Below, piece after piece: positions 15,001-63,000 of a DNA stretch of 64,000 nt. A program made the position numbers and the translations under genes. The stretch comes from an uncultured Planctomycetales bacterium. GTDB lineage: Bacteria > Omnitrophota > Gorgyraeia > Zapsychrales > JANLHA01. The notes beneath the pieces are model-generated. The model saw only the letters and a list, made by a program, of their open reading frames with translations. It was not told the origin of the DNA and did not search any database. The number at the start of each line of letters is the position of its first letter. Within the stretch, counting starts at the first letter, position 1. The stretch spans positions 71,743-135,742 of the forward strand of contig CAYJXI010000001.1 in NCBI GenBank assembly GCA_964374105.1, read 5' to 3'.

Positions 15001-18000
15001 TCTTTGACTAAGGATGAAGTGGGGGCCTTGCAGAAACTTCTTAAGGAAGCCAAAAATAATCCTGATCCCGAGGACCAGGAGGCCTACCGCATTGTTTACG
15101 AATATTATGAGAAGATTTTACGCCAGCCTTTCCCAGGGATTAGACGAATGATTGAAACCGATAAGGGATCAATTCGCTTTGAACTTTATCAGATGGAAGG
15201 CGCTTTCTTTTTAGCCGATCGTCTCTATGCCATTTTGGCAGATGATCCAGGATTAGGAAAAACCGCCCAAGCCATAGCCGCGATTCTTTCAATTCTTCGA
15301 AAACGAACCGATCATCCCAATATTGCCCTGATTGTTGTTCCTGGATCTGCTAAAGAGGTCTGGAAAAATGAAATCAATAAATGGACAATTGGGGTTCATG
15401 ATATCCTGATCATTGATGATAGAGGTGGACGTGGGCGACTTTACCGTAAAGGAGAAAAGGTTCAGACAACGAATCTTAAAGATTGGTTTGAGTTATTTGA
15501 GAAATCGCCGCCGCAGGAAGTGCCGTTTGTCATTGTGACATATGATCGTCTGAAAGGAAACTTTAAACCGCTGTGGAGATATTTAAAGAAGATCACACCC
15601 CTATCCACACCGGAGATTGATCAGTTTAAGATGGAATATCAACGTTATGATAAACAATGGTCACAGGATAAGCTCTATACCACCCTCCTTGACTTAATCC
15701 CCGAAGAACAAAGAGATGAGTTTCAAAAAGAACTTTACATCAAGGTCAACCGGGCCTTTGGTACCTTTGAATCCATCAGAAACTTAAAGGCCGATGTTAT
15801 TATCTTGGATGAGGCCCACCGCTTACGAAATGATGAATCCATTCAATCAAAAGCTCTGCAGGATCTAGGGGATGAGGCCCGTAAGATCCTTGTTACGGCA
15901 ACCCCGCTGGTAGGACGACGGCCGGAACGAATCTGGCCGCTCCTCCATTGGCTTGATCCAAACAAATACAATTCGCTTGAGAAGTTTATGACCGAATTTC
16001 CTAATAACGTAAAGGGTAAATGGGACCTTTATCTCCATCTGCAAGACGTCTTGATCAGAAGAAAGAAATCCGAGGTTTTGGAGGGTGTTCTTCCTCCGAT
16101 CACACCTCTTGAACACCAGGTCAATTTTGATGACGATGAAGATGCCTTTACCTATTTACGGTTGGAGGAAGAGTTTGGCGAATGGTTAGAAGAAGTCAGA
16201 CATTTAACCGGAACATATCCCGGTGCCAATCATGTCTTTACTAGGCTATTAACTTTAGTTAGGTTTACTTCCGGATTACGTTTTGTTGACGGGCAGTGGA
16301 AATTAAAAGAGAATGCTCCAAAACTCAGAGAGTTGGATCAACTGATCGATTCGATCCGCAGTCAAGGAGAAAAGGTTGTTATCTTCACCAGATTTGTTGA
16401 AATCGCCAAGACCTTAAGGAAACGATTCAGCGAACGGTTTGGCGAAGAATCGGTGAGTTTCATGGATGGCAGCGTTCCTCAGAAGAAGCGAGATCAGGAA
16501 ATCAAACAATTCCAAAACAATCCGCAGCGCCGATTCTTCGTTGCCACCTATGGGACCGGAGGAGAGGCGATCACCTTAACTGCCGCCAATCATGTCATCC
16601 TCTATGATTTAGAGTGGGCTGAACCCGAACAACCGATCAATAGGGTTCATCGTCTCGGTCAAACCAAAAATGTTTATGTCCATTATCTTATAATGATCGA
16701 CACGATCGATCAATATATCCTTCAACTCCATTATGCCAAACGAACCACCTTCGAACAGGTATTGGAAGGGTGGCTGCCTCCGGAAGAATTCGAAGAAGAT
16801 ATTGCCGCGATGATCATTGAACATTACCGGTCTAGTGGTGAGGCATCCGAGGAAGGAGCACCCGGTGTGGGTGCTCCCTTTGCTATGTTGCCCAAATGGC
16901 GAAGGTGGTATAACCGTTTAGTCAAATTCAAACTCGGCTGGGTGATTACCCTTTTGGCAGCTCCGATTTGGGAAGAATACAAGCGCCGTAAGTACGGCAT
17001 CACCTTTGAGGAATTTGCCGAGATGCACGATATCATTTATTTGAAGAAAGAACGGCGCTGGGTGTCGGCAATGTATGAGCATCTTGAGGCGATTCGCCTC
17101 ATGGCCTTGCAGACCGATGGGATTTATCTTAAAGCAGCCCAGTCCGGCCGCTGGGTCGGTTTACTTGCCGCTATCTGGGAGCATATGAAGTATAACTTCA
17201 GTGTCTACCGCGGCCTCAACGATGTCTTTGCCATGGCCCAAGAAAAGAAGGAAGATCCAGATGAAAAGATGAAAGAAAAAATTAAGATGATTCTGATGGA
17301 GACCTTTAGAGGGAAGCAATTCGATCGGTTAAAATCGACCGTACAAAACAGGATCTTGGATGAATTAACTGAGAATTTATTCGCCTTCTTTAAGACCTAT
17401 ACCCCGGATGAGGAAGGAATGTACCGTGCAGCGTCTTATGTCTTGAAACCCAGGAAAGGCCCGGTGATGGGGATTGATTTAACCGAACAAAGTCGAGTGG
17501 CGGGTCAAGTCAGAAGAGAATTACGAAAAGTCATTAAGAGAAAGGAGATTGAGATTACTCCCACCCATGTTGATTTGATAACCAGAAAACTCCTGCATCT
17601 TTTTACCAAGCCGAGAAAAGAACTCAAGAAAGAACCTTCCCCGATTAATATAGAAGTTATTACCGCTGATAATTTAGCGGAAACACTTAAAGAGGTCTTG
17701 GGTCAATTAGAATCTGAAGAAGGGCCAGAGTTCAAGCAGGCCAAGGAAAAGCAGTCGAAGCTGGCGGATGAATTTTATAGATTACTGAAAGAGCATCCTG
17801 AAGAAATATCAGGATTCAAGGTCTTTGCGGAAGAGCTCCTTAGTGTTGAAAATCCCAAACCAGGAGTTAGAGAAGAGATCGAGGCCAGAATGAGATTTCT
17901 CTTGACCGACCTTGCTTCGGAATTCTTACGTTATTATCTATTTTCTTTCGGTAACGAAGATCAATTGGCGCGGGTCAGATATGCCATTGTCAAGATTTTT

Positions 18001-21000
18001 GAAAGGAAACCGCCTTTGGCTTTCATGTACATCAATAGCAAAGGTTCTAGGCTCTCGGATGAGAATAAGCAAGAACTTGAGGAAGTGTTTAGCGGGCTGG
18101 CTGAACTTCTTAATCGTGCCGAAAAAGGAGATGCAATTGCAGTCCCGCTCGTTATGATTTTAGCCAGATTCGTTGCTTACACGGATGCTTTAAGTCTTAG
18201 TCCTCAGCCGATTTTTTATCTTAATGTGTCAGAGGAGATCAGGGAAACGCGACGAAATCCCTTTGTTGTACTTATGGCGGGAGTCACAAGTCTTGCGTTT
18301 TTATCTTCCTTGGCGCAAAGAAAATCTAAACAACTCGGCCGCGACCTGATTATTGTTGATCGCTCGATGTTTGTTGTCGAGTATCTTAAGACTGTGGTCG
18401 AAGAATTGGGCCTGAAACGGGTTAAGGTCATCCGTGCCGAAGTCGCAGATCTGAAAAAATATCCAGAATTCCAAAAGGGAAAGATCGGGGTGATCCGAAT
18501 TAAAGAACCATTGATGAGAGGGGAAGATTACGAATGGTTTAAGACCTTGACGGATATGGTGACCCCGGGCGGGAAAATTATTATCTCAAAATTCCCAGAG
18601 ATTTCGATTAGATCCCCGGAATCTTTCGATATCGACTCGATTAGTTTGAGGAAACCTACCTTTATCTTTTTGGATGCTAATATCGTAGAAGGATTATATC
18701 TAGGGTTTGTTAAGGCAGAGGAACCCCGATGGATGCTAGAGAAATATGGATACTATGATAAGGATCATCAATTTGTAGAGAAGATGAGCGGATATTATGA
18801 TGAAGAAAAGCAAACCTATGTTGAGACTTTCTTTATCTTTACCAAGCTCACCAGAAAGGCAGAAAAGAAACAAGAGCTGAGAGAGGCGCCTCCAGCGCTG
18901 GCAGTTCAAACAGCTGAGACAACTGTTCCCCAAGGGGTTGAGGAAATCCCGGCTGTTCCTACCAAGAAAGAGTCTTACGAGTTATTACAAGAAGAGAAGC
19001 AAAAGCTAGCCGAAGATATTGAAGAGATATTGAGTCAATTGATCAAGGAATATGAATCCATCCGAGATTTAACGATCATAAGAGATTTAGGTAGGAAGGA
19101 AGGTGTTGTTTGGGTGGAATTATTAACACAGTCCTTATTTAGCTTTTATCAAGATCAACGCAATATTCGTCTGGCGATTGAACGATTGATCCGAAATAAT
19201 CCTTGGCTTAAGAGTTCCTTGGAAGATACCCAAGTAATAAAAATCTTTGAAGCCCTTATTGGATTGATCCAAAAATTACAGGATAAACCCAAAGTCAATC
19301 CTTCGACTTCGTTTAGAATTGGCCCTGAGCCCCATCTCGGCGGGGTCGAATGGGTCAAAGAATTATTGGAAAAATCAGCCCGGTATTCTGCGATTGATAA
19401 AGCCTGGGAATTAAAACAATCCGGTGTAATTCCCTATGTTGTTCCGATAAGAGAATCAGTCCACACTAAGGGATATCCTTATGTTGAATTCTTGACGAAT
19501 TTAAAAGATTTCCAGGGTCTGTCCTCCCTAAAAGAAGTTGAGCGAGAGGTGATCTTCCTTGTAGATTCTCTCTTTACCGCCGCCTTCCTCAATAAAGCCA
19601 GTGAGGTTCTGGGAATATCCAATGCCAAAGCCCTTGAGGTTAAGCAAAATCTCCTTCAGTCGGAGGAGTTAAGCCAGGGGATTGGGACATTGCACTTAAA
19701 CAATCTAGATCAATTGCAGTTCATTGATCAATATCAGGAATTGGGGGAAGATTGGTATCGAAATCTCATTGAACGGGTTGTGGAAGGGGGAGAGGTCCTA
19801 TTCAGTGAACCGGTCACTCAAGAGAAATCGAGGGACATAACCTCTGGGGATATTCAAAAGAAACTTAACCCATCCATTCCCACCCCCAATGACAAAATAT
19901 TTATTGAGCTTTCTCAGAGAAGCCAAGAAAAATCCGAATGGAATTTAGAAGTCGGGTATATCAATCTTAAGGGTAAATTCATGCGCAATAAAACCGGATA
20001 TGTCATGCGAGGCTCAACGCGAATGGATACGGTCTACATCTTTGTACGGACTCTGACTCAGGAAGCAAAAGTTGCTAAAGCCAAAACCAAGATGATCACT
20101 GTAAAACTCTCCAATCGATTAAAAATATTTAATAATAATGAGGCCGTTTTAAGGGTGGGGGGGCAGACTATCAGAGATGTTACAGGAAATTTTCCCAACG
20201 AATTACTTAAGAAGATTATTGCAAATAATCAGCTTTCCGATCGCATTTTGATCTATATCAATGATACGAGGAAGGTAAGGCCAACCGAGATGAATTCAAT
20301 TCTTCAAGATCAGGATCAGTTGGTCATCATTTTATTACCGTCTGCAGATAAGAAGAAGGAAGCGGTAGAGAAATTTGAAAACCGGCCTTGGCTTCCTTTC
20401 ACGATCCAATTCTCAAAGAACTTTTTAAGGGATGTCAAACGAAGCGGGAAATTGATTGATCCCCGATTCTGGAAGTGGCTCTATAGTTTCTTAGAATTTT
20501 ATCAACAATTTTATCAAGAACCCAGAGACAAAGCCGAGAAGCATTTCTTAAGGGCCCTCAAAGGCAAAGGTACTAAGGCTGATACCCGCGTCTATCCACA
20601 TGTGTGGCATGACGATAATTATCGGCTTTACTTTGACTTCTTGTTTAAGGTAGAGAATAAGATCAGTGTCATCGATGGAATCAGGCTCTTTGCCTTCCGG
20701 CTTAAAGACTTCAGCGAAGACAATCCGGTATTTTACAAGGCCTTGGAGAGCTATTCAGCCGACAGTGAAGTCATAACCAGGATCATTGATGTCGAGAATC
20801 TGCTTAACCGGCTTTATAACAATAAGAATATTCAGTTGATTGCTGACTTAAGTCAGGAAATGAATTTGGCGAGTTTAGAGCAGGAGTTCTTCACCCCCGT
20901 TAAGAAGGCTTCCTCCTTAAATGATTTATCTGCGGCCTTTGATCAACTGATTATCGAACGCACCAGCGACTATGATGTCCCCACCTTCCAAGGAGCAACG

Positions 21001-45000: not shown

Positions 45001-48000
45001 ACAACCGGTTTCACGGCGGCGGGTCTACGAGCAGCAGCTTATGAAGCGGGAGCTCAACAAGTGTTTGCTTTGGCTTATGGAAAGTCCTTAAAGGGCAGGG
45101 CTGACCCTGAACTGGTTGGGCCGGAAATTTCTATGGAAATGACAACAGCTGAGATTCCTGAATTGTTGGGAACCCCATATGATAACGAGACCATCCAGCT
45201 TTTTGTGACAGGCGGGAGCTTTGTGAATTGTGTGTCCCGTACCATATCTCATGCGACACTTCATTCACTGCTTACTCTTAATAAGCCTCTTCGCGTGATC
45301 GTCTTTGAACCAGCTGTCTCTCCTTGGGGCAAACACGATTACGATGACTACATAAGCGCCTTTGTTCGAATAAATTCGATTCAATTTGCTGGCCTAATGC
45401 CATTAGATACAAAAGTAACATTAGACGGACATGTTATGGTTGATCAAAGACCGGTTGTTTACCCAGGTTATTCCGTACTTATTGAGATTTACACAACCAA
45501 AAAGCAATTCAAGGATAAATACCTTTATGAGAGCCGTGAACTTGATCTAAAAGGAGTTCAGAAAAAAAGATTCATCGATGTTCTTACCGAAAAACTAAAT
45601 TTAAAACAAGATGTAGCGCAACAAATACTGGAGCAGTTATTAGAGAAGAGTTCATTTCTGGCAGGTTGGGAGGGACAAGGTGAAGTCTTGTTCTTTGTCA
45701 TCGGCCTTTTAAAGATTTTGACCCTACCAGGTCTTGCCCAAAGCTTACAGGGGAACGAGGAGTTGACTAAAGAATTGGTAGATTCTCTTGGGTACTCTGT
45801 CAATCACCTTTTTAAAGAGAGGCTAGTCATTGCACGAAGAGCATTTATTTATACCGTGGAATTGTTAATGAGTTCTGCCGTGAGTAGGCTTCTAAAAGAT
45901 AAGAATGACGTAGAAGGCGTTATGGAAAGTATTCAATTTGTGTCTGGAAGAGCCAAAAATTTTCAAGAAAGGATTGTTGTTATTAATCGAGTTTTGAATT
46001 CGGGAAAACTAGCTCAAGAAATTACAGATTTAGATAATCTCCGTAGATATATAAAAGAAGTTTCTGAAGAGGTTTTAAAGAAGGCTCAAGTTGATCATCG
46101 TGGTTTTCTGGATGTTGAAAAGACGACCAGGACGATTCTAGAAGAGCTTAGTGGAAACAATTTTGGATTTCAAGAAGAGGGTGATTCTTACCGCAACATC
46201 ACCTCCTCCGCCTTTAAGGCCTATTTAGATCAGCATCGAGCAGAATTATTAAAGCAATTAGGCGAAGAAGGTGTGAGAAGATTAGAACGATATTTTGAAG
46301 CTTTAAGGATTCATGAAGAATTGACCAGCGCTAAAGGTTTGATTCGCGGGCAGCCTGCCCTGAGCGGAGTCGAAGGGCCATTCGAGGGAGCGGAAGTTGC
46401 CTCATTCGTCGCACCGAATCAGACCGGCCTCAATAAAGCCTTACGCGCCTCACTCGATCAACCTTGGGAATTATCCCCCGAAGCCATTCAAGTTTTGATC
46501 GACCAAGGATTTACTAAAGAAGAGATTACTGAATACCTCGCCTTCCTCAAAGAACATGAAGGGGAGCATCAAAGACTTTATAAGGAAAATCCTAACCATT
46601 CCGAAGACAGAATACTTGGAATTCAAGTAGACAACATAAGCCATGTGTCCTCACGTACGATAAAAACGCAAGCGGTTAGTTTGGGCGATAACCAAACTTC
46701 CACGCAATTTGTCAGCCGGAATTTCATTCAGAATATTTTTGATAATTTTGTACATCTTTTCTTTGGAGAGAAGATGGGTGCGCAAAACGATGATGCCGCA
46801 AGACTTTTGGGGAGGATAATGCAGGATGTTGCTAAAGTCGAGATCACGGGTAATCAAGACACGGCCTTCACGACGGGCAATGGCGAATATTTCCTCATCT
46901 TTAAGGGGGGTCTTGGAAATATCACGGACATCGACCACATCATAATCTTGGCTTTGAAGTTCATAAAGGAAAGAACGAGGGATATCCGCATCCAAAATGA
47001 GTTTGATCATTATCGAGTTGAAGATTTAAGGGGAATTTCTTCTTCCTTAGCCAGAAGGGCAGCAAACAGAAGCGATGCCTTGATGTCTTTATCGGACAGG
47101 GGAGGATATTCGGCTTTGATTTCTTCGGGGGTCATACCTAAAGAGAGAGCTTCTAAGACCACATATACCGGGGTGCGTGTTCCTTTAATACAAGGTTTAC
47201 CATGGTGGATATTAGGAGAAGTGACAATTCGTTCAAGCAGACTATTGATTTTAATCATATCAATACCTCCAACAGTTAAATTCAGTATAGTTACCTCTCG
47301 AGATAATGTCAACGAGAAAGTCCGCAACATCACCGCTGAGGCGCTGGAGAAATTTATCAATGCTAGAAATAACAGTAGCGAGCCGTTAACTGAAACCGTC
47401 ACCCAGCGGCTGCAGATGTTCGTGGCGATGTTGAGAATGCTGCAGGCAGAAACCGGTGGTGAACCTGTTGCGTACTACAATACTGCGACCGACCAAATCA
47501 TCTGGAATCTCACCGAAGAACAAATCCGCACCATCCTCAGTACCAAGAATAAAGAAGAAAACATCACCGTACTCATTGATTTCATTCGTAAACACGAAAA
47601 GAGACATCAACAACTATCTCGAAAGAAGATTAAACATTCCGAAGATAATATCTTTGAATATCAAATTAAAAAATGGAAAGCATCGGCTCCCAATAAGAAA
47701 TCAATCCGCGAGTTGTTGTTTAGCAAGCGACAGGGCGCTCCTCAGGGATTGCCAAAGGTTTTTGCCTTTAGATTCGAAAGGAATCAAAGGGTTAGGAGAA
47801 TTTCTGTTGCCAAAGACTTGCAACAAAGATTTTTCTCAGAAGCGTTTTTGGTAGAGACAGATGAACTTGGCGCCACTGTTATTGGAGATATTGAGCAGTG
47901 GGGTGGATTTAGAGAAGATCGGTGGAGACATAGTCATCTCATGGAGTTAGAGGATGAGGATATTGTCGAGATGGCCTGCAGTGATTGTGGCGCCATGATT

Positions 48001-51000
48001 ATCCACAATGCCCAGACAAAAGAAACCTTTTTTGCCCATTCTTTGGGATACGAATCATTTGAAACATGGCAACTTAGTCTTCAAGATGCTAAGAAGCGCT
48101 TTGCTGAGCAGGAAGATCAAGTTATCGTTTATGTTGGGGCGAATAATTTAGGATTTACTCTAGGAGATTATGATGATCATGGAGATTATAAGATCAATCT
48201 TGATAAAACACTAAAAACAATCAATTCAGCGTTAGAAGAAAGACAAAGGCTGATCAATCAAGCAATCGAGTTAGGCTACCGAGTCGTCCAAACCTTCCCG
48301 TATTATATTGGGATTTCATTAGATCATTATTTCAGCCCTCAACGCGGAATCCTCATCATTAGGGTAGATAAAACAAATTTTCCAGATTTTGTCAAAAGGA
48401 AAATGCCTAATCGACAATATTTGGATTTATTGAAGAAATTAACCAAAGAAAGAAAAGGCAGTGCTTATTTTGATGAAGGTGAAAACAGCGGGTTCCCGCG
48501 CCGCAACATCACCGCTGAGGCGCTGGAGAAATTTATCAATGCTAGAAATAACAGTAGCGAGCCGTTAACTGAAACCGTCACCCAGCGGCTGCAGATGTTC
48601 GTGGCGATGTTGCGTATATTAGAGGGGACAACTAACGGTGAACAAGTTGCGTATTATAACCCCGCCACCGACCAAATCGTCTGGAACTTGATCGAAAAAG
48701 ACATCCGTACGATCTTAAGCGCTCACCGTTTTACCACTGAAGAAATCACTGTCCTTATTGCTTTTATCCGCGAGCACGAAGAACATCATAAAAAATTTAA
48801 AAGGCGAATTTCTCATACAGAAGCTGATATCTTTGAAGATCAAATCAAACGAATAGCCCAGGAAACAAAATATTCTTTGCCTAAGCGAAAGGTTTATACT
48901 CGTAAGGTTATCAAACGCGGCGAACCTTGGCTTGATATCATTGAAAACATTTTCAAAATGCAACCATCCTTGCTGCAAAATCGAGCATTGGTCGTACTAT
49001 TTATGCTAAGCCTATTTGACCGATATTGGCGGTCTAAATCAGGGTCTATCGCGATATCTGCTGTCCGAGATTACATACCAGACTTTAATCTATTGCCTTC
49101 ACCTAAGTCAAGGAGACAAATCATTAACGAAATTAGCGGAATGTGGAGCCGTTATCAATTGGTGCATTGGCATGGGGCCTTTGAATTCTGGTTATACGTG
49201 GTTTCCATGGTGTCTATACTAAGACCAAATGTGCTCTTAAAAAGGCTTAAAGATTTCTTTTTGATATTTGGACCTTATTGGGATTTGATAGCCGTGTTGG
49301 TGAATGTATTGCATCTACGCGCCCTGCCGGGCCATGGTTTAGAAGAAGGGAAACTCATTGATCTTGGAATTATCAACTCCGCACTGTTACGCATTGTTGA
49401 ATACTTTATTGAAAATTTACAAAGTCGCACGATGGAACCACAGAGAGACGGCCACAAGATCAAGATCCCAGAACGAGCTGTTTATCTCTGGGCTATTGCC
49501 TCTGCTTTGGATCCCATTATATATTCCGACAGCGAAATAAGGCCAGAAACCCTTAAACAGTTAGCTCTTCTCAACCAAAAATGGAATGGCAAAGTGGAAC
49601 TCTTGATTGAAGAAATTTTAGGGACAAATTGGTTGAACTACAACCTCAAGAGTCCGGAGGTGGCCTATGATTCAATTCTTGGATATGATGATGAACCGAT
49701 TCCGTTCATTTTCGCCATCAAAGATACAAGGGTTCTTGAACAATGGGTCTTACCTGACGAAAAGCATGATGTTCTTGGTGATCCTTTGCTTTGGTTGATT
49801 ATGGTTAAGAATGATCAAGAGGAGATAACGTCATTTTTCAAGGGACAGGATTTTTATAGGACACAGGAAGAAAGGAATCGCTTGCGAGGGAAGAGAATGT
49901 CTCTTGAAAAGAGAAGAAAATTATTTAAAAGGACATTGCGGGAAGATTTAAGATTTTTGAAAGAGCAGGAGAAGGGACGGCAAGAACAAAAAGCCAAGTT
50001 ACACAACCTCCTTGATCAATTTGAACATCTTCATGAGACTGTCAAAAAAGAGGGGAGTCGAATTGTTGATTATGAGGATAAGCGGTTTGTGATCGTGGTT
50101 TATAAAGAATATGAGAGCACTTCTCAATCTATACCTCGTTTAACAACGAGAACTGTTTTAGGGACAGCCGAATGTTTTGATTGTCAAGGGGTGCTGGGAG
50201 TTGGCTTTGTCTCAAGGAAGGCCAAGACAGGCTTTGTGCTCCATCAATTTATGAGATTAGAAGAGTACTTCCCGGATTTTGATTTAAAGATTCGAAACGA
50301 TCATCTTAGATACGAGTGGGAAGAGCTGATGGCCAAGATGAGGGGTGCTCAGGAAATCATCATTGTGTCTTCTTATCGATCAGAACGAGAAGAGTCTGTC
50401 TTAGAAATTGTTAAGAATTTGCCAGAAGCTCCTCATGTGCGCGGTTTATTAATTAAACGAGATGAATATGTTGATAACGAATCGACCATGATGGCCATCG
50501 CTCAGGGAATGGCAATTCGTACCCATAATCTTCCCAGAAATTATCGTAGAGAGGTTATCTTAACCTGGGATGAGGTGAGAGAATTACTGAGAGGTGATTT
50601 TACTTGGATTACTATGGAAGAATTAGAAAGAAGGAAAGGTGGGGACAGCAGTAGTTTTGACAAACCTCAGCCCCCACCGAAGCACCGCAACATCACCGCC
50701 GATGCTTTGGCGGAGTTTATTGCAAACAATATCGGTCGAATAAGTAAAAGAGTCGCAAATCGTTTGAAACGATTTGTCGAGATGCTGCGTATCTTAGAGG
50801 AGCACGTCAAAGAAAATTGGAAGATTCTGACACCACCGGCCGTTGCTTATTATGACACGACCAATGACCAGATTATCTGGAACAGGAATCTATCTAAAGA
50901 GGATATCCTCATCACCCTTAAAACTCACCGTTTTACAACAAAAGAAGTCGTCGAGCTTATCATCTTTATCCGCGAGCACGAAAAGCTCCATCGGCTACTC

Positions 51001-54000
51001 TACAAAAGAAATCCCGCTCACAGCGAAGAGGATGTCTTCCAAAAGCAAATTAAATTGTGGAAAGAAAAAGTTGTTACTCCCACTTTATCCATCATCGATT
51101 TGGTCGGGGCAGATCCTGTTCCAGAAACAATCGAGCAGACCTTTAATTTAGAAGAGACAGAGAAGCTTTTTGCGGCCTTGGATGAAGAGCGAAAGATTGA
51201 TTTACGGAAAAGTAAACCTCACATTCTATTGATTGGAGCAGGCGCTGAAGATGTAAGATTCATCGCCCAACGTTATCCGAAGGGTCAGATGGCCGTGGTC
51301 AGTTTAGGGATAGGACATCTTGTGAAGATCAAAGAGACCTTTGAACAAGATGCCCACGTCAATAGACGGCTCAAACTTTTTTATGCCGATGCCGCCCATT
51401 TGAACCGCAAAAAGTTCCCCAATCAATCATTTGATTTTATTTATATCAAGGGAATTGATCCGACCGCCTTCGGTGATTTGAAAGAAGGTGACACAATTGT
51501 TCAAGGAATTGCCGAGGTGGCCATGCGCCTCATAGGGCCTGGCGGCATCATCTATCATCAGTATTTCCCGCATTTCCGGGTTCGGATATTCTATTCGGCT
51601 TCTGCACATTACATCACGGGACAGGATTTGAGAGAAATTGAAATCCCATCAAAATGGGAATCTCAATGGGTCGTATTTTTAAGAAAGGCACAACAACGAC
51701 CTCGGCAAGAAAAGCGCCATATTGTCGATGCCCATGAGCCTCAAACAACGCCTAAACTGACTCTCGAAGAAGAACTTAAGCTTTTGAGACGTATTGTTTA
51801 TGAAAGCCGGGCGTATATTTTTGAGTTGTTCCGTTTCCATAAGTGGCCGGTTCCGGAACCATTAGCGCAGGTAACATTAGGCGGGTGTTGTCAGGATGCC
51901 GCTCAGGATATTCTGTCCGTTGTTGAACTGCTAAAGAAAGAAGACAGGAGAGGTCTCTCAGCAAAAATATACCAAGCTCATACCTTGTTCTCAAAAGGAG
52001 TTCGAACAACAAATATTCTTGCCCATGTCTTTGCCGTTGTTTCTTTTGAAGATTCCAAACAGCATTATCTGGTTGATACGACCTTTAATCAGCACATGGT
52101 CGATAATTGGGAGGAGCTTGGCTTACGCGATACCTTAGAGATTGCTGCTGATTTGCGGGGTGTGGATTTTGTTTTTGAACTTATTCACGATGGCTATAGT
52201 CCGCTAACCGATGAAAATTCCAACGTCTATGGCAATATCCTGCGAAGATCTGATTTACAAGAATTTTCAACCAAAGACATTGTTGAGGGGCCAATGGCCC
52301 CCTTGACAGAACTTGACGTTGAACGGGAAGGGTTTTATGTCGGTGATGAGTCAGTCAAAGAGAAGATCGATAGACAAATCAGAAAATTCTTAATCTCGCT
52401 TGCCCCAAGATTTAAACGGCACGGGTTTGATGTAGAAAGAAAAGGTGACAGTCACCATCAAAAGGGAGAGGCACCCAAGGATGCCCGCCAAGCCTTTGGC
52501 TGGAAACCCTACCGCGCCCAACTCAAATCCGAATTCGGCCAAGAAGGAATCCGTCACCTCAAACGCGAAGACCGCTGGATCGTGTTTGCGATTGTGTTGT
52601 ATTGGTTTATCCGTGCGGTCACGCTGGGCTTCTGGGCACCACCAGTGCCTACGGGCTTTAAGTTCTTCCAAATCGCCTCACCGACCGCCGAACATCCGGC
52701 CATGCGGTTTATTTCTGCCAAGTATCAGCAATCCATCCGCACACATGAACAAGATCATCCAGAAGAAGAATTCGAAGCCTACCGAAATGCATTGAAGGAA
52801 CATCAATCTTCACTTCGAATTCGATATTTATCACGATCGACAATAACAAGAGATTTAGACAGCTCAGAGGCAGGAACTTCTTTGAGGACTCTCACTAGGA
52901 CGGTATGGACAGCCTCCATGGCTCCCAATGTATCCAAACGAGGTCGCAGGAGAATAACTCCACAATGGGATTTGGTAGGATATAAATTGAGATTGCCAAA
53001 ATCAAGATCGGTAGTAATGATGGTTGCCTTCTCTTTATTGGCAATATTGATTACTGTGCCGTTTGTTGCGGAAGCCTTCCCCAACTCTTGGATTGTCACA
53101 ACGGAAAATCCACTTTGGCGCAGTATCTTCGCGGTTTGGACGAGTACGCATTCATCAATCAATAACTTCATTTTAGCGGGACTTCAGATTTTCGAAGAAA
53201 TGTACTTCTTCATTGCGGACCAATTGGTTGGCATACGCAATGCAGGCGTAAATATCTTCCGGGGAGAGTTGGGGAAAATAATCTTCGCCAGTGATTTCTT
53301 GGGGAGAGAGACCGGCGCTCAGCAAATCCAGAATTTGCCAGACCATAATGCGATGGCCCTTTATGCATGGCTTGCCGTGGCATATCTTTGGATTTACCGA
53401 AATGCGTTTAAGAAGCTTTTGGGTATCATTCAATTTAATAGTCGGTTTAATCATTTTTTGAATCTCCAAAATAACAATAGAACTGTAGCATCTCCAAAAG
53501 GTCATGTCAAGGAGGCAGAAAGGAAACAATGGTTGGAGGAAATTCATGAAATCCAGCGCCGCGAAGCCTTTGGCTGGGAAGCTTACCGCGCCCAACTCAA
53601 ATCCGAATTCGGCCAAGAAGGAATCCGTCACCTCAAACGCGAAGACCGCTGGATTGTGTTTGCGATTGTGATGTACTGGCTAATTCATGCTATGACGCTC
53701 GGGTTCTGGGGGCCGCCAGCGAAGGTGACAGTCACCAAAGGTGACAGTCACCTTCGCCAATTTGCCCGATGGCAAATTGCCTCACCAGAAGCCGAACATC
53801 CGGCTTTGACGGCGAAGATTTTCGGATTGATTCCCTTAATGCCTGCTAAATACAGACAATCCATCAGACAACACGAGTTTTATCATATTTACCGAACCGA
53901 TGAATATGGTGTTTATCGAGATCAGTTGATTTGGGTACTGGATGTTTTAAGTCCGTCTCACCAATTGGCGCAAAAGATCAATGAAAGTTTAAACGGGCAA

Positions 54001-57000
54001 CCTTTAGAGGTCTACGCTGATCCTTTGATCATTAACGACCAAAAGGTTTTCTATACAACTACGGAAGGTACTAGGTCCCAGGCAACGGGTAGCGAGAGGA
54101 CATTGCCTCGTGTTTTAAGGATTGGACCGGATATTTTTGTCCTCATCAACGAATACGGACCTCAGCCGGAAAGAATCACCTCGCAAATAAAAGGAATGAA
54201 ACAAAGATTAGGTAAGTTATACACCAAGAACACCGGGCGTATTCACTTTGTCCCGTATTCATTTTATAGTCGAGGGGATATCGAACAGACCGGTATCCCA
54301 TTGAGTCGAGACGCGGTTGTCGCGGTTGCCTCAATCGGTACGTTTATCAAAGAGAACGATACCGGTTTCGGGTTGGATTTAGGAACCGGTGAGGATGCGC
54401 TCTTAGGAAAGGTCATGATGAAACGCGGCCTTAAAGTTGTCTTGGTAGAAAAAGAGGCAGATTTGATTCCAAGAATCAGGACATATTTGGCCCATGAGGC
54501 CTCCCAAGAAAGTCAATGGGATTGGAACAAAGAATCCCACGAGTGGCAAAGAGGCGAGAGAGGTGATGGCGATTATGTCCTCCTTCAGGGGGATCTTTCC
54601 GATCAAGATTTCTTAAACAAACTCATGGAACATCCTTGGGTCAAACAAGCGAAGATCCTCACCGCTAATATCGGACCTTGGGGTTTCTATGGCAGTAAGG
54701 ACAAAAGCCAAATTCATCCCAATGAGGCTTCTGTTGGGATGGCGGTTGGCTTGCCTAACGTTAGATTCTTTATTAACAGCGGATACTATTTATCTTACCA
54801 AAGATCCTTCGAAGAAGGGCATCACGGGCAAGTTCTAAGCGCTAATAAACAATTCTTCAAAGACCAAGGATTTGAAGTAGATGTTTTGAAGATGAGTTCA
54901 AAATACAGTTCTGCCGCAACCTTAATAGCTTACCGGCAGCATAACAAGGGGACACTCAAAACAGGATTCCTTGGGCCTTATGAGGTGCTTGAGCCGGTGT
55001 CTTATGATCTTAAAGAAAACAAATTATCCGGGCAATTGAGAAACACCTCGACCAAAGAGGTAGTTGATCTGGCCTATACAACATATATTGAACGAGCCCC
55101 GCCGGCGGCGATTCGGGAAATGCTTATCGATGTGAAGAGGCTTGCTAGAAATCGGATCGTTACAAAAATTATTAGAAGATATTTAAGAAGTTTTGCTGGC
55201 CAAACCTTTATTATTGAACACCCTGCCGACATCACTTTAAGTTTTGCTAAAAAGAATCTCGTTGCGATTTCTCGGTATCTGATGAATACCCCCCTCGCTG
55301 TCTTCCACGAGATTGCACATGCCGTTCTCATCCGATCGGAAAATGAAAAACTCCTAAGGCAGTTTGATTCCTATTTACAAAAGGAAGCTTCCACTTTGAG
55401 ATTAGTGGAACTGAACAAGACCGGTGATTATCCTACCCTTCCCGACATTATCCATCGATTGATTATTGCCTTACAGAAATTTGCAATGCCTGAACTGAAT
55501 AAACAGCTCATCGGCAAACTCTATTATCTTGAAAAACTTCAAAGAGAACTTAAAGCAACCGATAAAGAAATCATAAGGAATGAATTAGATCATGTGGTGG
55601 TGATGAATAAAGAAAAAGGCATCGTGAGCGCTAACTGGTCAACAACCGAGGCATTCGCTAAAGAAAAGTTACCTAAAGAATATCGATATTTAACGCATAT
55701 TGGGCGATTAGATAAAAAGACAACTGGACTCTTATTATTCGGGAAGAAAGGATTCTTAGGAGTGACCCTGATTAATCCAACCCTTCATCCTGAACATAAG
55801 GTTAAGAAGGTCTATGAAGCGGTTGTTCAAGGCATACCTCAAGAAGAAGATTTACTGCGTTTAAAAGAAGGTATCGTGATTCGGTTTACCAAGATATCCC
55901 AGAAGGGCAAGAAGAGAGATAAGGTTGAGTATCTTGCCAAGGCGGTTGAGGCTAGATTGATTGAAGCTGATAGGAAAACAGCTGGAGTCCAAGTGGTCTT
56001 GACTGAAGGCAAAAACCGCCAAGTCCGTCGGATGCTGGCCAAGATCGGATTCCCTGCCCTTCGACTTAAACGCATTCAAATAGGTGAAGTTAAACTCGGC
56101 GATTTAAAACCTGGCAGAATAAGAAGATTAACCGATGAAGAAAAACAATGGATGTTAGGAGTTTATCGCCAGGGCCTGCGGCACATCTTGAATAAAGAAC
56201 TAAAGCCTTATCAAAGAATGAAAGGGCCGCTACGAACGAAGCTCAGTCACCTTCCGTGGCGGGTGGCGAGCAAAATAAGTCGTGCGTTCGTAGCGGCCTT
56301 GAAGATTATTAGACACTTAAGGAGATTGTTGGGGCATCGAAGCGTTGATTCAGAAGAACAAAAAGATTTGCCGGGATCTCACCAAGAAAAACGTGAGGTC
56401 CTTGGCTGGTGGAGGTATCGAAAAGAGCTTCGTCAAGAATTCGGCTGGCGCGGGATTTGGTATTTGGTGAAGGAAGATTGGAATATCATCCTGGCTTTCA
56501 TCAAGGAGTATGGTTGGATCCGCGGGGCGCCGATGGCGTTCACAACGCCGATCGCCACTCCAACCGCCTATATCCGGGCCTTCTATCGATTACCGCCGAT
56601 GTATCAAAATTCTATCTATGAACATGAAGAAATCCATAGGGAGGTGAAATCCGAATGGGAAGCTTATCAAGGGCAGTTACAGAAGATTCTCTTGGATAGA
56701 AAGATCGGAGATCTCAAGAGGTGGTTTAAGGAATCTTACCAACTGATAAAAGAGTTCTATTCACCTAAAGGAAAACATACGCCCAGCAGTGTAGTAACCA
56801 GTAGAACTGATGTAGAGATCGCAAAAGAATTGGAAGAAGATATTTATAAACAGATTTTTGAAGTGTTGGAAGAGATTAGCCAGCATATAGAGCGAGGGAG
56901 AATACGGCCGGATGTGAGACTGAGGGTATCTGAAAGAGAGGTACCAGGGTATATACCTAAAGATATGGGACGGCCGGTGCGCGCGGCGTTTCTACCAATG

Positions 57001-60000
57001 AAAGGGGATCCTTGGCAAATAGGGCATCTATTTGTGATTCTTAAAGGTATAGCCAGCCGACAGTTTGATAAAGTCATCGTTATGGTCGATAACAGTGATC
57101 CTGTCCGTAAACCCAATTTAAGATCATTAACCATTCGGGAAGCGATCAGCAGGATAATATTAAAGGAGTTAGGATCGCTAGTGCAGTATACGCCGGTTCC
57201 CAAAGAAGAGGAGGCCCTTTTCGCCGCCGATGGAGAAACGGTCTTGTTTAGACTGATTGAATTAAATAAAGATACCCCAATGGAAATAGATTACCTAGTT
57301 GGGTCGGATCATCGGTACTGGGAGATCACCAGGATTCATCCTGAGAGCAAGAAAGAAATTAAGTTGCCTGACACTACCAAGAAACTTTTTGATCATCAAG
57401 ATAGGCACCTGTACGGATATGAACGAGGCAAGAGTCCTAGAGTCAATATTTTGTTTTTTGAACGCATTGGGGAGCTTTTGACAGAAGAGGTGAGGAGAGA
57501 TTTAGAGAATAAATCTGGCATAAGGATAAATAAGATTTTCCATCGAATGGATTTATCATCGACACGGGTCAGGAAAGAAAGGCATTACTGGACGGTTCCC
57601 TGGATGATTTATGAACTTGCGAAAGCATTTAAACTTTGGGGATTTGAGGAACAACCCATTGGGGAAGGACAATCGGAGACTTGGGATCAACAACAAAAGA
57701 ATATAGCTGAGGGTTTAATGAGAATAGTTGAAAGGATGTTGATAAGTATTTTCAAAGATTATGAATCGGTCAAAGAGGAATTTAAGCGTGAATTAAGAAA
57801 AGCTTATGGACCGGCGATGGATATTTTGGACATGGGTATTATGAAGAGATTATTCCAGGCAGCCGATCCCCAGAAATCAAGAATGGCTCCGGAGGTTGTT
57901 ATACAAAGAGAACGACTAGAAGAGATCCGTGAATTGATCTTTGAACGAGGAGAAGAGATCGTCAGAGAGACATTATCAAGCAAGGCATTGGAGCGTCGGG
58001 TTCTGGGCTGGTGGCCGTATCGAAAAGCGCTTCGCCAAGAATTCGGTCTGCGCGGGATTTGGCATTTAATCAAGGAAGATTTCCATATCATCCGCGCCTT
58101 TATTAAGGAATACGGCCTTATTCGGGGAGCGCCAATGGCCTTCACCCAGCCGATTGCCACACCATCCGCCTATAACCTCGCCTTCCGTCATCTAGCCTTA
58201 TCTTATCAGCAATCTATCAACTTCCATGAAAGCGTCCATCGAGAGGGTGAAGATGAATTGAGAGCCTACGCTGAACAGTTAAGAGGGATTCAGAAAATGG
58301 TGTCTGTCCCCATTTCCATTTCTATGTCTCGTAGAGAAATGCTGAAAGTATCTTTAACAGGACTAGGGGCTGCCGCGCTAGCAAGTTGTCTGGGATGTGC
58401 CCTACCGAATTCGCCACAACCGGCATGGCTTACCAGAAATTCCAAAGATTATGTGGTTAAGCCGCTTGACTGGTCAACAATTATTGGTCAGGCAAGGGTG
58501 GTCTTTGTTGGAGAAACTGACCACGATACTCAAGATGATAAATACTTTGTGGCAAGGTCGCTTAAGGAATTAAAAGCCATCGGTATTACTCATCTGGCTT
58601 TGGAAAATTATGAGGCCCATACGCAGAGTCTTATTGATTTGTTCTTGCAAGGCGCAATCACCATGGTCGAGCTGGAAGAGAAGATCAGCAAAGCCCGGCC
58701 GCAAGGTGCCCGGTTGCCCAAGTTGTCGCCAGATTTTAGAGCCATCCTTGAAGCGGCCAAAGAAGCGCAGATAAAAATTATTGCCCTGGATAGCCCCCGA
58801 TATGCGCTGGGGACTGCGGGCGAACGTAATATTAAATGGGCAGGACTGATGCTGCCTGTTCTTAAGGATGACAAGATAAAGATTTTGGTTGTGGATGGAG
58901 CAGATCATTCGATCTACAAATACCGATATCTGAAGAGGCCCGGTGCCAGGATTCAGGATGATATAGGGTTACTTCCGGTTATTTCAGAGTTAATCATGAA
59001 GTATTACCCGGTTGTTGTAACTCAAATAGTCAGCACAGATCAACCTACCTTATGGTATACGAAAACTTTTGTTATCAACGCCATAAACGAAGGGGCTGAT
59101 CATAATGAAAGTGTTAATCTTGAGCAACCGCAGATGATTTACGCTCGTGAGGGTATTATCGATGAAGATAGCGACTACTACATTTATGCCCCTGAAATTT
59201 TATTGAACGATTTAGAGGATAAACTTAAGCAAGAACAGAAACGCCAAGTACTCGGCTGGTGGCCGTATCGAAAACAACTTATCAAAGAATTCGGTCTGCG
59301 CGGGATTTGGCATTTAATCAAGGAAGATTTCCATATCATCCGCGCCTTTATTAAGGAATACGGCCTTATTCGGGGAGCGCCAATGGCCTTCATTAACCCC
59401 ATCGCCTATTTCGATCTCAAGACACAACTGATCCATTATAATCTCGTCTTTCGGCATCTGCCCAAGAACATTAAAGAAACAATCGAAATTCATGAAGATG
59501 CACATATTGATGGTTTGGATGAGTTAGGTGCTTATTGGAAAGAATTATCGGAATTCACTTACCACATTTATCCTCGCTTGCAACGAGCAAAGCGCGCCTA
59601 CAACGTCAAATTACAACAGATATCCTCGAATGAATGGTTGGCGATCAGTTCCAAAGGGATATATCGATATCAATTGATTCAAATTGATGAAAGCAATGTC
59701 AAGAATTACAAAGAGCAAATAATGGGTCTCTTTGAGAATGATTCAGAATGGCTTAAGGAAGATGTCGTGGGTTACTATAAACGCATTCATTATGATGTCA
59801 AAGACCATAACATAGTTGGTTTATTTATAAATAACCGTATGGTTGGAATTTATGATCTCTTGAGTGAAGAATTTGCTTTCCATATGTATGTTAACCCGCA
59901 ATATCGGGGAACAGGTGCTGTTGATGTCTTATTTGAAGATTGGTTGTTACGATTCTTAAAAGGTGATGTTACGAAGCCCGTGACAGGTCAAATTAGGCGT

Positions 60001-63000
60001 AGTCCTAAAAAGAGCAAATTATCTTTTGAGGACGGGACGATTTATGAATTAAAAGATGCATTAGGTATTATTAGCAAGGTCGAAGTCGAATATTTAGGTG
60101 AACGAGGGAAATCTGCCCGCCGCGCCGATGGCGGGGCCCGCCGCGCCTTTGGCTGGTTAAGGTTTGCGTGGAAACTCTACAAAGAATTCAAGCTACACGG
60201 CATCTGGCATCTTCTTAAAGAAGACTTGGCGATCATCCGGGCCTTTATTAAAGAATACGGCCTGATCCGCGGGGCGCCGATGGCACTGAGAGAACCAATC
60301 GCCACACTGGCCGCTTACAATCTTGCCTTCCGGCACTTAAAATTAGAGTATCAACTTTCGATTAATATTCATGAAAATGCGCATCAGGAATGGGAAAATG
60401 AATTGCAAGCTTATCGAGAAGAACTACCGTGGGTTAAGGCAGTGAGGCAGGGTTTAGTTGGTCAAAGCAATCCCTTCCACCGTTATCGACTTAAAGGCAC
60501 TTTTGTCACCCAAACGTTTGATCGCATCGAGGATTTCGATACCGGCCAGTTTACCTTCGCTGTCATAGTCGGCAGCAATACCATCAGCGATATTCTCAGT
60601 CGTGACCGTAGTATTTTCTTTGAACATTATGTAGAGGGCATCAACTTTAGGATCGTAGGTAATGCGCATGAGACCTCCTTATTAGAAATAGTAAACGTAA
60701 ACAGTAACGACAATTATTTTCTTCTCTTCCTCGACAAAAATGGGCCTAACTTGTTTAGTCCTGCAATGCTTGCCATTCCACGTGCTGTTAAAAGGGAAAT
60801 CTTTACGGCATTCCCATTTGTTCAACTGCGACTTCTGCCATGGGATGGTATTAATGACTTCCGCAATCTCCGATTCGTTCGTGCCTCTCATCGTACAACG
60901 CATTTTAGCATGGGCACTCAAAAGGATCGTTCTAGCAATCATGCGTTTGATAGTACAATACCCAAGAAAGAAAGTCAACAGGCATTTCATTTGCGTCATC
61001 AATATCAACGTCGGGTTTTGGGCTGGCGGCCGTATCGAAAAGCGCTTCGCCAAGAACTCGGTCTGCGCGGGATTTGGCATTTAATCAAGGAAGATTTCCA
61101 CATCATCCGCGCCTTTATTAAGGAATACGGCCTGATCCGTGGATCTCCATTAAAGACACTCTATCGAGTGCCTTATGCCATTTGGCTTAGCTTGACTCAA
61201 CCCATCGCTACAGCTATCTCCTATAATGAGGCTTTCCAACATTTACCTCCCCAATACCAATTATCGATAAGATTTCATGAATATGCACACCTGGAAGGAC
61301 AAGATGAATTTGAAGCTTATCAATATGAGTTGCGCTTCATTCTTAAGAGGAGATCATTCTTAGAAAGAGCTTTTATTGAAATCCGAAAGGCTTATATGTT
61401 AATGATCGAGCACTCTCTAGATCGTGGCAGAATTATCCTGGATGGTATTTATTTCACAAACCAAGAAGAGAATCGGGAAGGAGCCGAGAAAGAGACGGAT
61501 TATTTGCGACAACTAGACATGAGGTTTAGAGATTTTTATGAGCATTTATCAGAAACTTCAGAAATCAATAAAGCAGCTGAGCATTTGCTTTCGCAGATTG
61601 ATAAGTCGGAAGGTTTCTTGAGAGATCATCAAACTGATTACTACCTTATTGCAGCAATCATGTTTAAAGAAGTCATTCAATTGTTAACGAGATTGGGGAA
61701 TGATCGTGAGGAGAGTATCGAAGTTGATGCGGCTATTCAGATGATTGGACTTGCTGTGGCTACTATGGATCGTTGGGTTTGGGAGATTAAAGCCGGAAAT
61801 TCAATTCAGTTAATCACTCAAATTGCACCAGATGCAAGGAAAATCAAAGTCAAGAAACAAACTATTATTTATAGCGTTTTAGGTGTGATGATTTATTTGT
61901 TTGCTTCTGTCAAATCTTTTCAGCAAAGGAAGCTTATTGGGAACATTGTCAGCAAGGATGATCAGGAATTGGAACTCAAATTCAAGATTGAACCGGCGCC
62001 GGAGCTGTGGGATTCGAACAAAAGATTGATAGACACAAAAGATTTACTTTCATCGGTTAAAGAAATATTACGAGTTGCGGGGGGATCTTTAGAACAAGAG
62101 GAGGGTGTTTCTACAGATTTTGTCATTCGATTGCCTCTACATAAAGGCGAAAAAGGTGACAGACACCACTTTAAAGTCGCTGTTTTGCCTGATGAAAGCT
62201 TTGAGGTGAGGATGACCGAAGGCGTGTTGGACCGTCAGAATACTCTGATCGCTGAGCAAATCGGCAGCAAGAAGGTGTTCTTCGTGGTGGACGATGGGGT
62301 AGGCAGTGGGACTGTCAGTGAGATTAAGGATTACATCCAGCATCATCGGCTTAAGGCCGAGGTGATGGTGGTCAAAGGCGGAGAACCGGTCAAGGACGGA
62401 TTGTCGCAGGCCCTGCAGGTCATTGACGAAGCAGAAAAATTCGGTATTGACCGCAAGGAAATTATGATTTTTGTCGGTGGAGGAGCGGTATTGGATATGG
62501 CCGGGTTTGCGGCCACTATCTTCCACCGGGGCGTTGAGCATATCCGGATTCCCACGACCCTCCTTTCCCAGATTGATGCCGGGGTGGGTGTTAAAAACGC
62601 GGTGAATTATCTGGGGCAGAAGAATTTCTTAGGTGCCTTCCAGCCGCCCAAGATGGTGATTGTGGATCCTAAGCTTTTGGCAACATTGGATGCCCGTCAA
62701 ATGAGTTCTGGCATGGCTGAGGCAGTGAAGGTGGCGTTGATTAAGAACAGAGAATTGTTTGAAATGATTGAACAGCATTATCAGGATGTCGCTAGGAAAG
62801 ATTTATCCGGCACCAGCCGCATGAAGGACATCATGTGGCTGACCATCGTCGCTCATCTTGAACAGATCTACACCGATCCGTACGAACGAAAGCTGGCTCG
62901 GCCATTGGATTTTGGCCATGAATGGGGACATCGTTTGGAGGTTGTGACCAAACACCGCCTGACCCACGGCGAAGGGGTCTCGATCGGCATGGCGATAGAT

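Follow-up and report, generated by a model that had tools for sequence, protein, structure and literature searches.

The 64,000-nucleotide stretch of DNA analyzed here (the window; positions 71,743 to 135,742 of contig CAYJXI010000001.1 in assembly GCA_964374105.1, from an uncultured bacterium of the Omnitrophota) contains, far inside one very large open reading frame (ORF), a predicted twin-arginine translocation (Tat) lipoprotein signal that is followed by a domain of the ChaN/Tiki family. The window consists of a single open frame, frame 1 of the forward strand (1-63999; 21,333 codons), with zero stop codons and no obvious start, and none of the other frames is open for 250 codons or more in the ORF scan of the window. 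Because frame 1 is open at both ends, the window is an internal piece of one giant gene. Pfam matches to many enzyme domains tile this ORF and include SNF2 helicase, PrmA-like methyltransferase, uridine kinase, inositol monophosphatase, RmlD, transketolase, Pol-beta nucleotidyltransferase, pseudouridine synthase, ChaN/Tiki, GNAT and 3-dehydroquinate synthase. The ORF runs to at least 21,333 codons and covers 12 or more distinct enzyme families, and it has the size (more than 10,000 codons) and the content (many enzyme Pfams) by which giant multi-enzyme genes are recognized. Giant "multi-enzyme" proteins have been described in the Omnitrophota (bioRxiv 10.1101/2023.11.21.568195; bioRxiv 10.64898/2026.06.07.730766), and the ORF shares with them a length of more than 20,000 codons, many enzyme Pfams and scattered hydrophobic segments, 18 of which were found in a crude hydropathy scan.

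The embedded Tat-lipoprotein signal

The predicted Tat-type lipoprotein signal peptide, MSRREMLKVSLTGLGAAALAS, was recognized by its pattern and by alignment with homologues, and it occupies positions 58324-58386 of the forward strand (amino acids 19442-19462). It begins with the ATG at 58324, which lies in frame 1 and from which the translation, starting at amino acid 19442, reads MSRREMLKVSLTGLGAAALASCLGCALP and, over a longer span, MSRREMLKVSLTGLGAAALASCLGCALPNSPQPAWL... Its twin-arginine motif, S-R-R-E-M-L-K (arginines at 58330-58335), agrees with the consensus S/T-R-R-x-F-L-K at six of seven positions, with M replacing F. The core of the signal, VSLTGLGAAALAS, has 13 uncharged residues, within the span of about 12-20 for the hydrophobic region of a Tat signal, with a Kyte-Doolittle hydropathy of 1.4-1.8, and the lipobox, L-A-S-C, fits the pattern [LVI][ASTVI][GAS]C, with its Cys 22 residues from Met19442 and hence within 15-35 residues from the start. 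As read from the sequence, this Cys at the +1 position (58387-58389; amino acid 19463) is the predicted site of lipidation and of cleavage by signal peptidase II, and it is followed by the P/S/Q-rich stretch ALPNSPQPA. Tethers rich in Pro, Ser and Gln after the Cys are typical of lipoproteins.

When the 21,333 amino acids were scanned with the combined pattern (Met, twin-arginine motif, uncharged core and lipobox), it was matched only at amino acid 19442, and it was not matched in any of 300 residue shuffles of the ORF. In Pfam, the best match of the 40-amino-acid segment was TAT_signal (PF10518), which was covered over the full model yet scored below threshold (16 bits vs. a gathering score of 22.7; E 0.012), and a search of NCBIfam with the same segment gave no match. 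This sub-threshold score and the 18 hydrophobic segments of the ORF are what would be expected if the segment resembled a signal by chance, or were a mere transmembrane helix of the giant protein with positive residues ahead of it. The shuffles argue against this explanation, as does the residue-for-residue alignment, described below, with N-terminal Tat/lipobox signals in proteins homologous to the domain just downstream, and we find it very hard to credit. The SRRxFLK-like motif, hydrophobic core and LxxC that an earlier note on this DNA had reported are thus borne out by the translation, by the uniqueness of the pattern, by the shuffles and by the homologue alignment.

The same note had placed the signal at an in-frame ATG directly after the fourth copy of a repeated linker module and before a ChaN/Tiki-like domain, with which the reading frame, the linker profile and Pfam all agree. 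The signal starts nine residues past the end of linker copy 4, and 33 residues past the HExxH motif of that copy, and the nine intervening residues (MVSVPISIS; 58297-58323, +) form a spacer that opens with a second in-frame ATG, at 58297, with a GAGG 4-mer 9 nucleotides upstream. The signal does not lie at the N-terminus of the translated polypeptide: its first codon is number 19442 of an ORF without interruption, and only cleavage or internal initiation of translation could make it N-terminal.

Both routes had been proposed in the earlier note, and they fared differently. If ribosomes started at ATG 58297 or ATG 58324, whether the message was the giant mRNA or an internal transcript, the region would work as a nested gene that produces a separate precursor. 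The two in-frame ATGs stand exactly where the start of the family is expected, and the upstream one is preceded by GAGG at a distance of 9 nucleotides; however, a Shine-Dalgarno-like 4-mer of the same quality precedes 13.7% of the 379 in-frame ATGs, and ATG 58324 is preceded by none. The number of promoter-like sites (18) equals that expected from shuffles (18.1), with none just upstream on the forward strand, and mRNA folding around both ATGs is average (percentiles of 0.37 and 0.54). Moreover, such a product would lack its own stop codon, and translation would continue into the remainder of the giant ORF. Internal initiation thus found no support in a Shine-Dalgarno motif, a promoter or weak mRNA folding, and we would be surprised if it were the explanation, while cleavage stands as a hypothesis for which the HExxH linker provides a candidate.

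The ChaN/Tiki module and its stand-alone relatives

The mature ChaN/Tiki/RRSP-type domain, delimited by Pfam and by alignment, occupies positions 58390-59241 (+; amino acids 19464-19747) and is of full length in comparison with stand-alone members of the family. It matches PF04187 (Cofac_haem_bdg/ChaN, of the Tiki superfamily) over amino acids 19497-19606 (model positions 7-113 of 213) with 47.3 bits against a threshold of 27.7 (E 3.3e-12). A word-indexed homologue search with the Tat signal and ChaN module together gave no match, and an exhaustive HMMER search of 1.84 billion protein representatives gave 89 homologues, of which the nearest is 42% identical. Nearly all of them are stand-alone proteins, mostly of 240-430 amino acids, in which the domain begins 25-120 residues from the N-terminus.

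A signal-like core was found by a crude test at the N-termini of 46 of the 89 homologues, and a strict scan of the N-termini flagged a Tat-type motif in five cases, of which four are clear (SRRDFIK, SRRTFLK, SRRKFLR and PRRDFLA); the motif SRREALK of homologue P0071 was found by viewing the N-termini. A Tat motif and a lipobox occur together in two homologues, P0025 (...FLSGC) and P0041 (...GLASC). When aligned with MAFFT, SRREMLK...LASC of the window falls in register with the N-terminal Tat signals of P0025, P0041, P0071, P0011 and P0020, and its lipobox Cys is aligned with that of LASC in P0041 and of LSGC in P0025. The homologues carry 20-33 residues ahead of the twin arginines. By homology as well as by pattern, the segment is thus predicted with good reason to be a genuine Tat-type lipoprotein signal, and the alignment shows it, at the level of sequence, to be by descent the native N-terminal signal of a stand-alone gene of the ChaN/Tiki family. 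That the signal is still used for export is our inference.

The G, H, E, R and H columns that are invariant or nearly invariant in the family alignment are all present in the window, in GETDH (58510-58524), ALE, ERN and GADH, and the embedded module reaches the C-terminal motif of the family (DYYIYAPE at 59173-59196 vs. ADYxIHLPQ) 15 residues ahead of the next linker. Because the module spans the full length of the family, a complete precursor gene, with start codon, signal, lipobox, mature domain and C-terminus, is embedded in-frame between two linker copies. The same domain family, with the G..H, E, R and H columns, is found in the stand-alone Tat lipoproteins P0025 and P0041 and in ChaN of C. 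jejuni (2g5g, a "putative lipoprotein"). The layout of the stand-alone ChaN Tat lipoproteins is also the same: a twin-arginine motif, a hydrophobic region, a lipobox Cys, a tether, the domain and a C-terminal "IHLPQ"-like motif. They are, however, encoded by separate genes for proteins of 260-430 amino acids, whereas the precursor in the window begins at codon 19442 of a stop-free ORF and is at most 42% identical to them.

When the profile of the family was compared with solved structures, the best match was the RRSP/DUF5 effector domain of MARTX toxins (6a8j/5w6l; E 7e-13), which was followed by Pasteurella multocida toxin C1 (2ebf) and HopBA1 (5t09); ChaN itself (2g5g) was matched with an E of 0.003. 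Because the match to RRSP is far better than that to ChaN, the module at 58297-59244 may be a protease of the Tiki type and not a protein that binds haem. Its GC content, GC content at third codon positions and codon usage are indistinguishable from those of the rest of the ORF, so that the compositional test for recent foreign origin of the module was negative. On the opposite strand beneath the signal and the ChaN domain, there are only short ORFs of 88-112 amino acids, which we take to be spurious.

HExxH linker modules at the junctions

The linker modules are about 100 amino acids long and are present in seven copies between amino acids 17500 and 20451, which were found by a profile scan with E-values of 1e-40 to 2e-53. 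All are on the forward strand: copy 1 at 52498-52812 (amino acids 17500-17604), in which the long helix is hydrophobic, copy 2 at 53572-53949 (17858-17983), copy 3 at 56401-56697 (18801-18899), copy 4 at 57994-58296 (19332-19432), copy 5, which closes the ChaN cassette, at 59242-59565 (19748-19855), copy 6 at 60151-60447 (20051-20149) and copy 7 at 61018-61353 (20340-20451). In the alignments, the invariant residues are R, G, W, E, ED, H-E-x-x-H, E and Y, along with several acidic positions. The HExxH motif and a Glu six residues past its second His are invariant in all seven copies and in P0001, the sole homologue outside the window; in copy 4 they are HESVH (58225-58239) and the Glu at 58255-58257, and in copy 5 the motif is HEDAH (59491-59505). 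All copies and P0001 also keep R-x-[VAL]-[LF]-G-W at the start of the linker, where copy 4 begins R-x-V-L-G-W. The HExxH linker is thus a candidate metal-dependent processing element. The earlier note did not contain this invariant HExxH...E, which supplies a candidate catalyst for the cleavage that it had proposed.

Zincins with a short spacing to the third ligand include the metzincins (HExxHxxGxxH) and the WLM/SprT families (HExxHx5H). The linker likewise has HExxH and an invariant acidic residue six past the second His, and HESVHREGEDE of copy 4 reads HExxHxxGxxE; it differs from zincins in that it is predicted to consist of four helices with no beta-sheet and has no sequence or structural match among peptidases. 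The AlphaFold2 model of the linker, built from eight sequences, has a predicted local distance difference test score (pLDDT) of 82.7 and places the HExxH motif on the helix of residues 74-88, while a single-sequence AlphaFold2 prediction of the linker plus the ChaN module was of low confidence (pLDDT 32.7).

In 5.8 billion proteins, the linker profile found one relative. This protein, P0001, is a stand-alone protein of 184 amino acids, 56% identical to the linker, that is encoded at 809-1363 of a 3.5-kb metagenome contig (L001; ENA ERZ27247235, contig k141_493230) and is flanked by two toxin-antitoxin-like pairs, DUF5615/DUF433 and DUF2283/DUF4258, one on each side. Apart from P0001, the ORFs of that contig have no significant similarity to the giant protein. 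One of them, a truncated ORF at 2357-3454, contains another zincin-like stretch (GANFIQNNTLYILID...LFHELNQEDH). No related locus was found with the linker profile in GTDB genomes, IMG/VR or JGI metagenomes, nor was there a match of the linker in plasmids and phages. A search of genomes with the transketolase module likewise gave no match.

HE..H motifs are not confined to the linkers. The ORF contains 16 of them, compared to 1.06 expected from shuffles, at amino acids 8953, 14259, 15519, 15865, 16259, 16993, 17582, 17958, 18436, 18875, 19409, 19831, 20124, 20426, 20973 and 21197. Many follow a strand-like "xAxYxxxxxxIxxN", as in minimal zincins, and Pfam recognizes none of them; at lenient E-values, the linker and six other HExxH-containing segments gave only noise. 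A second repeated family of HExxH modules, with four copies that are 27-67% identical, lies at 46186-51075 (amino acids 15400-17025); its signature is RNIT...VAYY..TDQIIWN...F(I/L)(R/K)(E/K)HExxH...HSE, and it has no homologue in the 5.8 billion proteins. Kinship between the linker (type A) and this second family (type B) was not established (hhalign probability 38%). The motif HEIAH at 55306-55320 (amino acids 18436-18440) stands alone: it is zincin-like, follows "TFIIEHPADITLSFAKKNLVAISRYLMNTPLAVF", lies upstream of the pseudouridine-synthase domain and belongs to neither repeat family.

At the DNA level, the two halves of the linkers have different histories. The C-terminal halves are 47-65% identical in nucleotides, with many synonymous differences at conserved residues, which argues for purifying selection on the linker peptide and suggests that these halves diverged anciently. 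The N-terminal halves of copies 4, 5 and 7 contain tracts of about 106-125 nucleotides that are perfectly or almost perfectly identical and have abrupt edges (approximately 58090-58196, 59338-59444 and 61105-61211, +), with perfect identity over about 106 nucleotides between copies 4 and 5, and copies 1 and 2 are 95% identical. Such identical tracts with abrupt edges indicate recent recombination or gene conversion among the linkers. The ChaN cassette lies between two of these tracts, 1,248 nucleotides apart, which would permit in-frame deletion or exchange of the cassette.

It should be noted that this arrangement bears on an explanation that the earlier note had not considered and that accounts for the existence of the signal without its use: a whole lipoprotein gene may have been joined into the ORF, for example by recombination via the linker repeats, with the signal left unused and the ChaN domain staying cytoplasmic within the giant chain. 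The homology of the segment to N-terminal signals accounts for its presence without any function, and the direct repeats on either side of the cassette show perfect identity over about 106 nucleotides, with abrupt edges. That a clear signal occurs in the ChaN module only, that the fold of the linker is unlike that of any protease and that internal initiation lacks sequence support are also as such a relic would have it. Several findings nevertheless speak against it. The signal is flawless in its Met, SRRxxLK, uncharged core, LASC and P/S-rich tether although the domain is at most 42% identical to the sampled homologues; the composition of the module equals that of the host ORF; and the ancient divergence of the C-terminal halves of the linkers indicates that the modular array is old. 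An intact Tat/lipobox signal exposed in a cytoplasmic chain would also probably engage TatBC or the signal recognition particle, and so would be unlikely to be neutral. On balance we regard a fusion relic as the main rival to the reading favored below, though as less likely than not. Even if the signal is a relic, it still records the growth of a giant gene by in-frame capture of entire preprotein genes.

Proposed polyprotein processing, its alternatives and known systems

The reading that we favor, tentatively and with somewhat less than even confidence, is that the giant chain is a polyprotein which is cut near its junction modules and from which the ChaN precursor is released, exported by the Tat system and lipidated. 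Cleavage would take place at the junction modules or close to them, and the candidate metal-dependent element is the HExxH module, which would act on its own or on neighboring chains. Cutting would separate cytoplasmic enzymes (such as nucleotidyltransferase, GNAT and dehydroquinate synthase) from the sole exported module. The released precursor, folded in the cytoplasm, would be recognized by the Tat system via SRREMLK and the hydrophobic region and then transported; lipidation of Cys19463 and trimming by signal peptidase II would follow. The product would be a membrane-tethered Tiki/RRSP-like hydrolase of about 32 kDa outside the cytoplasm. The N-terminus of the released precursor need not be Met19442; given that the homologues tolerate 20-33 residues before the twin arginines, a cut anywhere in the linker tail or the spacer would suffice.

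Several sets of observations are consistent with polyprotein processing, among them the strongly supported descent of the signal from a stand-alone lipoprotein gene. All canonical features of the signal are intact though the nearest homologue is only 42% identical, and such integrity, when every sampled homologue differs by at least 58%, is a sign of maintenance; the match in composition between the module and the host ORF is counted as another such sign. A linker with the conserved HExxH and Glu, whose peptide appears to be under purifying selection, stands at every junction, and the excess of HE..H motifs in the ORF, with their second repeated family, points the same way. Enzymes of cytoplasmic type flank the exported module, and no hydrophobic stop-transfer segment follows it for about 1,150 amino acids. 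It is topologically awkward for a single chain to combine one exported module with enzymes of this type.

Other observations weigh on the opposite side. Only one of the seven modules that follow linkers has a clear signal of this kind, and at most two have one; the two hydrophobic segments found after the seven linkers, compared to about 0.6 expected, are not a significant enrichment. The only conserved motif at the junctions, R-x-[VAL]-[LF]-G-W, is at the N-terminal edge of the linker, with none between the linker and the Met, and it may be structural rather than a cleavage site because the stand-alone P0001 keeps it too. The AlphaFold2 model of the linker is all-helical, without the beta-sheet of zincins, and gave no structural match to known peptidases; the linker also gave no Pfam match beyond noise at E-values up to 10 and no sequence match in the PDB. 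Because the predicted fold is all-helical and matches no peptidase, cleavage at the linker stays a proposal. In addition, searches of proteins, genomes and metagenomes with the module and the linker found no orthologous giant gene. Finally, recent recombination among the linkers means that the cassette may have been placed recently, which weakens the argument that the signal has been maintained by selection.

Cleavage before export might not be required if the signal worked from within the chain. In this alternative, the signal would enter the membrane as an N-in/C-out hairpin, on the model of internal twin-arginine signal-anchors or of the internal signals in flavivirus polyproteins, and signal peptidase II would sever the upstream side between LAS and C of the lipobox, which would thus be a built-in cleavage site. 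The earlier note had held that a signal peptide is functional only at a free N-terminus; for the Tat system this is not strict, as internal twin-arginine signal-anchors are documented in dual Sec/Tat-integrated membrane proteins, such as actinobacterial Rieske proteins and others (PMC3471235, PMC5449189), with Sec denoting the general secretory pathway. Giant proteins of the Omnitrophota type are also predicted to be heavily membrane-associated (bioRxiv 10.64898/2026.06.07.730766). The likeness of the window to the dual Sec/Tat proteins is that a twin-arginine signal lies away from the N-terminus of the polypeptide. In those proteins, however, the Tat-dependent helix is the last one, lacks a lipobox, is not cleaved and has Sec-inserted helices at most a few hundred residues before it, and the exported domain ends the protein, whereas the signal in the window has about 19,400 amino acids ahead of it and more than 1,800 after it, including two more linkers and the GNAT- and dehydroquinate-synthase-type cytoplasmic enzymes. 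There is no hydrophobic stop-transfer segment before about amino acid 20622, and a second, downstream cut would still be required. We consider an internal signal without a prior cut to be improbable.

The literature on giant proteins offers a frame for polyprotein processing. It is explicitly left open there whether a giant bacterial protein is cut up into multiple products, and C39 and S8 peptidase domains have been proposed as possible processing enzymes (bioRxiv 10.1101/2023.11.21.568195). The candidates of the window differ in that they are the HExxH junction modules. Internal signal-peptide calls in giant proteins have been deliberately suppressed as artefacts (bioRxiv 10.64898/2026.06.07.730766). 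Neither HExxH junction modules nor an embedded complete precursor of a Tat lipoprotein was found by keyword in these two Omnitrophota preprints.

Comparison with better-known systems places the window apart from each of them, beginning with the MARTX toxins, such as RtxA1 of Vibrio vulnificus, whose RRSP/DUF5 effector is the best structural match of the ChaN-family profile. These toxins are very large multi-effector chains from which an internal protease frees the modules, and recombination swaps the modules. A MARTX toxin has, however, one cysteine protease domain, which is activated in the host cell, whereas the window has an HExxH module at each junction; MARTX effectors are also not known to carry Tat or lipobox signals, and the cargo of the window consists mostly of housekeeping-type enzymes. 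Internal signal sequences in flavivirus and pestivirus polyproteins guide translocation and, as substrates of host signal peptidase, also show where the chain is processed. The window resembles them in having a complete signal sequence within a predicted polyprotein, and differs in that their setting is eukaryotic, viral and dependent on co-translational translocation by Sec61. We know of no bacterial chromosomal equivalent of a polyprotein of this type.

Thus, giant multi-enzyme ORFs, internal Tat signals and signal sequences inside polyproteins are already known elsewhere. What appears to be new is an entire Tat-lipoprotein precursor embedded in the middle of an ORF, repeated helical modules with HExxH at the junctions, for which public data hold next to no relatives, and identical DNA tracts in these modules that could mediate in-frame exchange of cassettes. 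A broader proposal that joins these parts is that previously undescribed HExxH helical modules, which number 11 or more in the window and belong to at least two families, cut the chain at its junctions and release complete proteins, one of which, with a Tat/lipoprotein signal, is exported, while the near-identical DNA tracts double as recombination sites at which whole-gene cassettes are swapped in-frame. We put this fuller proposal forward as doubtful in its entirety. If polyprotein processing is borne out, it would here be combined with protein sorting in a cellular organism, and it would define junction modules of a new family as well as a way in which giant genes are built from whole-gene cassettes. 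The literature leaves open whether a giant gene of an uncultured bacterium gives rise to a single enormous protein or to many products, and an internal signal that is backed by homology and lies beside a module with a conserved metal motif makes the question concretely testable. Polyprotein processing predicts a lipoprotein of about 32 kDa that starts from Cys19463, a neo-N-terminus near amino acids 19420-19442 and a dependence on HExxH, on the Tat system and on signal peptidase II.

Other hydrophobic and repeated segments of the ORF deserve mention. A second signal-like segment, M...KSRSVVMMVAFSLLAILITVPFVAEA followed by FP, was recognized by hydropathy at 52918-53070 (+; amino acids 17640-17690), after linker copy 1. 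A Met and the basic residues KRGRRR...KSRS come first, then VVMMVAFSLLAILITVPFV, which is more hydrophobic than any other segment of the ORF, and then A-E-A, and further hydrophobic stretches lie downstream. The segment may be a Sec-type signal, or it may serve a small membrane module as an uncleaved signal-anchor. In linker copies 1 and 2 (52573-52632 and 53647-53706; amino acids 17526-17544 and 17884-17902), the long first helix scores as transmembrane (WIVFAIVLYWFIRAVTLGF), and the same helix is amphipathic in copies 3-7. The start of the window (1-9600 and 18000-20100; amino acids 1-3200 and 6000-6700) is built of at least five copies of a repeat of about 700 amino acids, 25-40% identical and without Pfam matches. 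The repeat pair at amino acids 11732-11779 and 12063-12111 is 47% identical and includes a transmembrane-like helix, and another pair, at amino acids 9933-10050 and 12871-13003, is 53% identical and holds "IRGPP.IGVANY...RHEIRA", which recalls "IRGAPMAF" of the linker.

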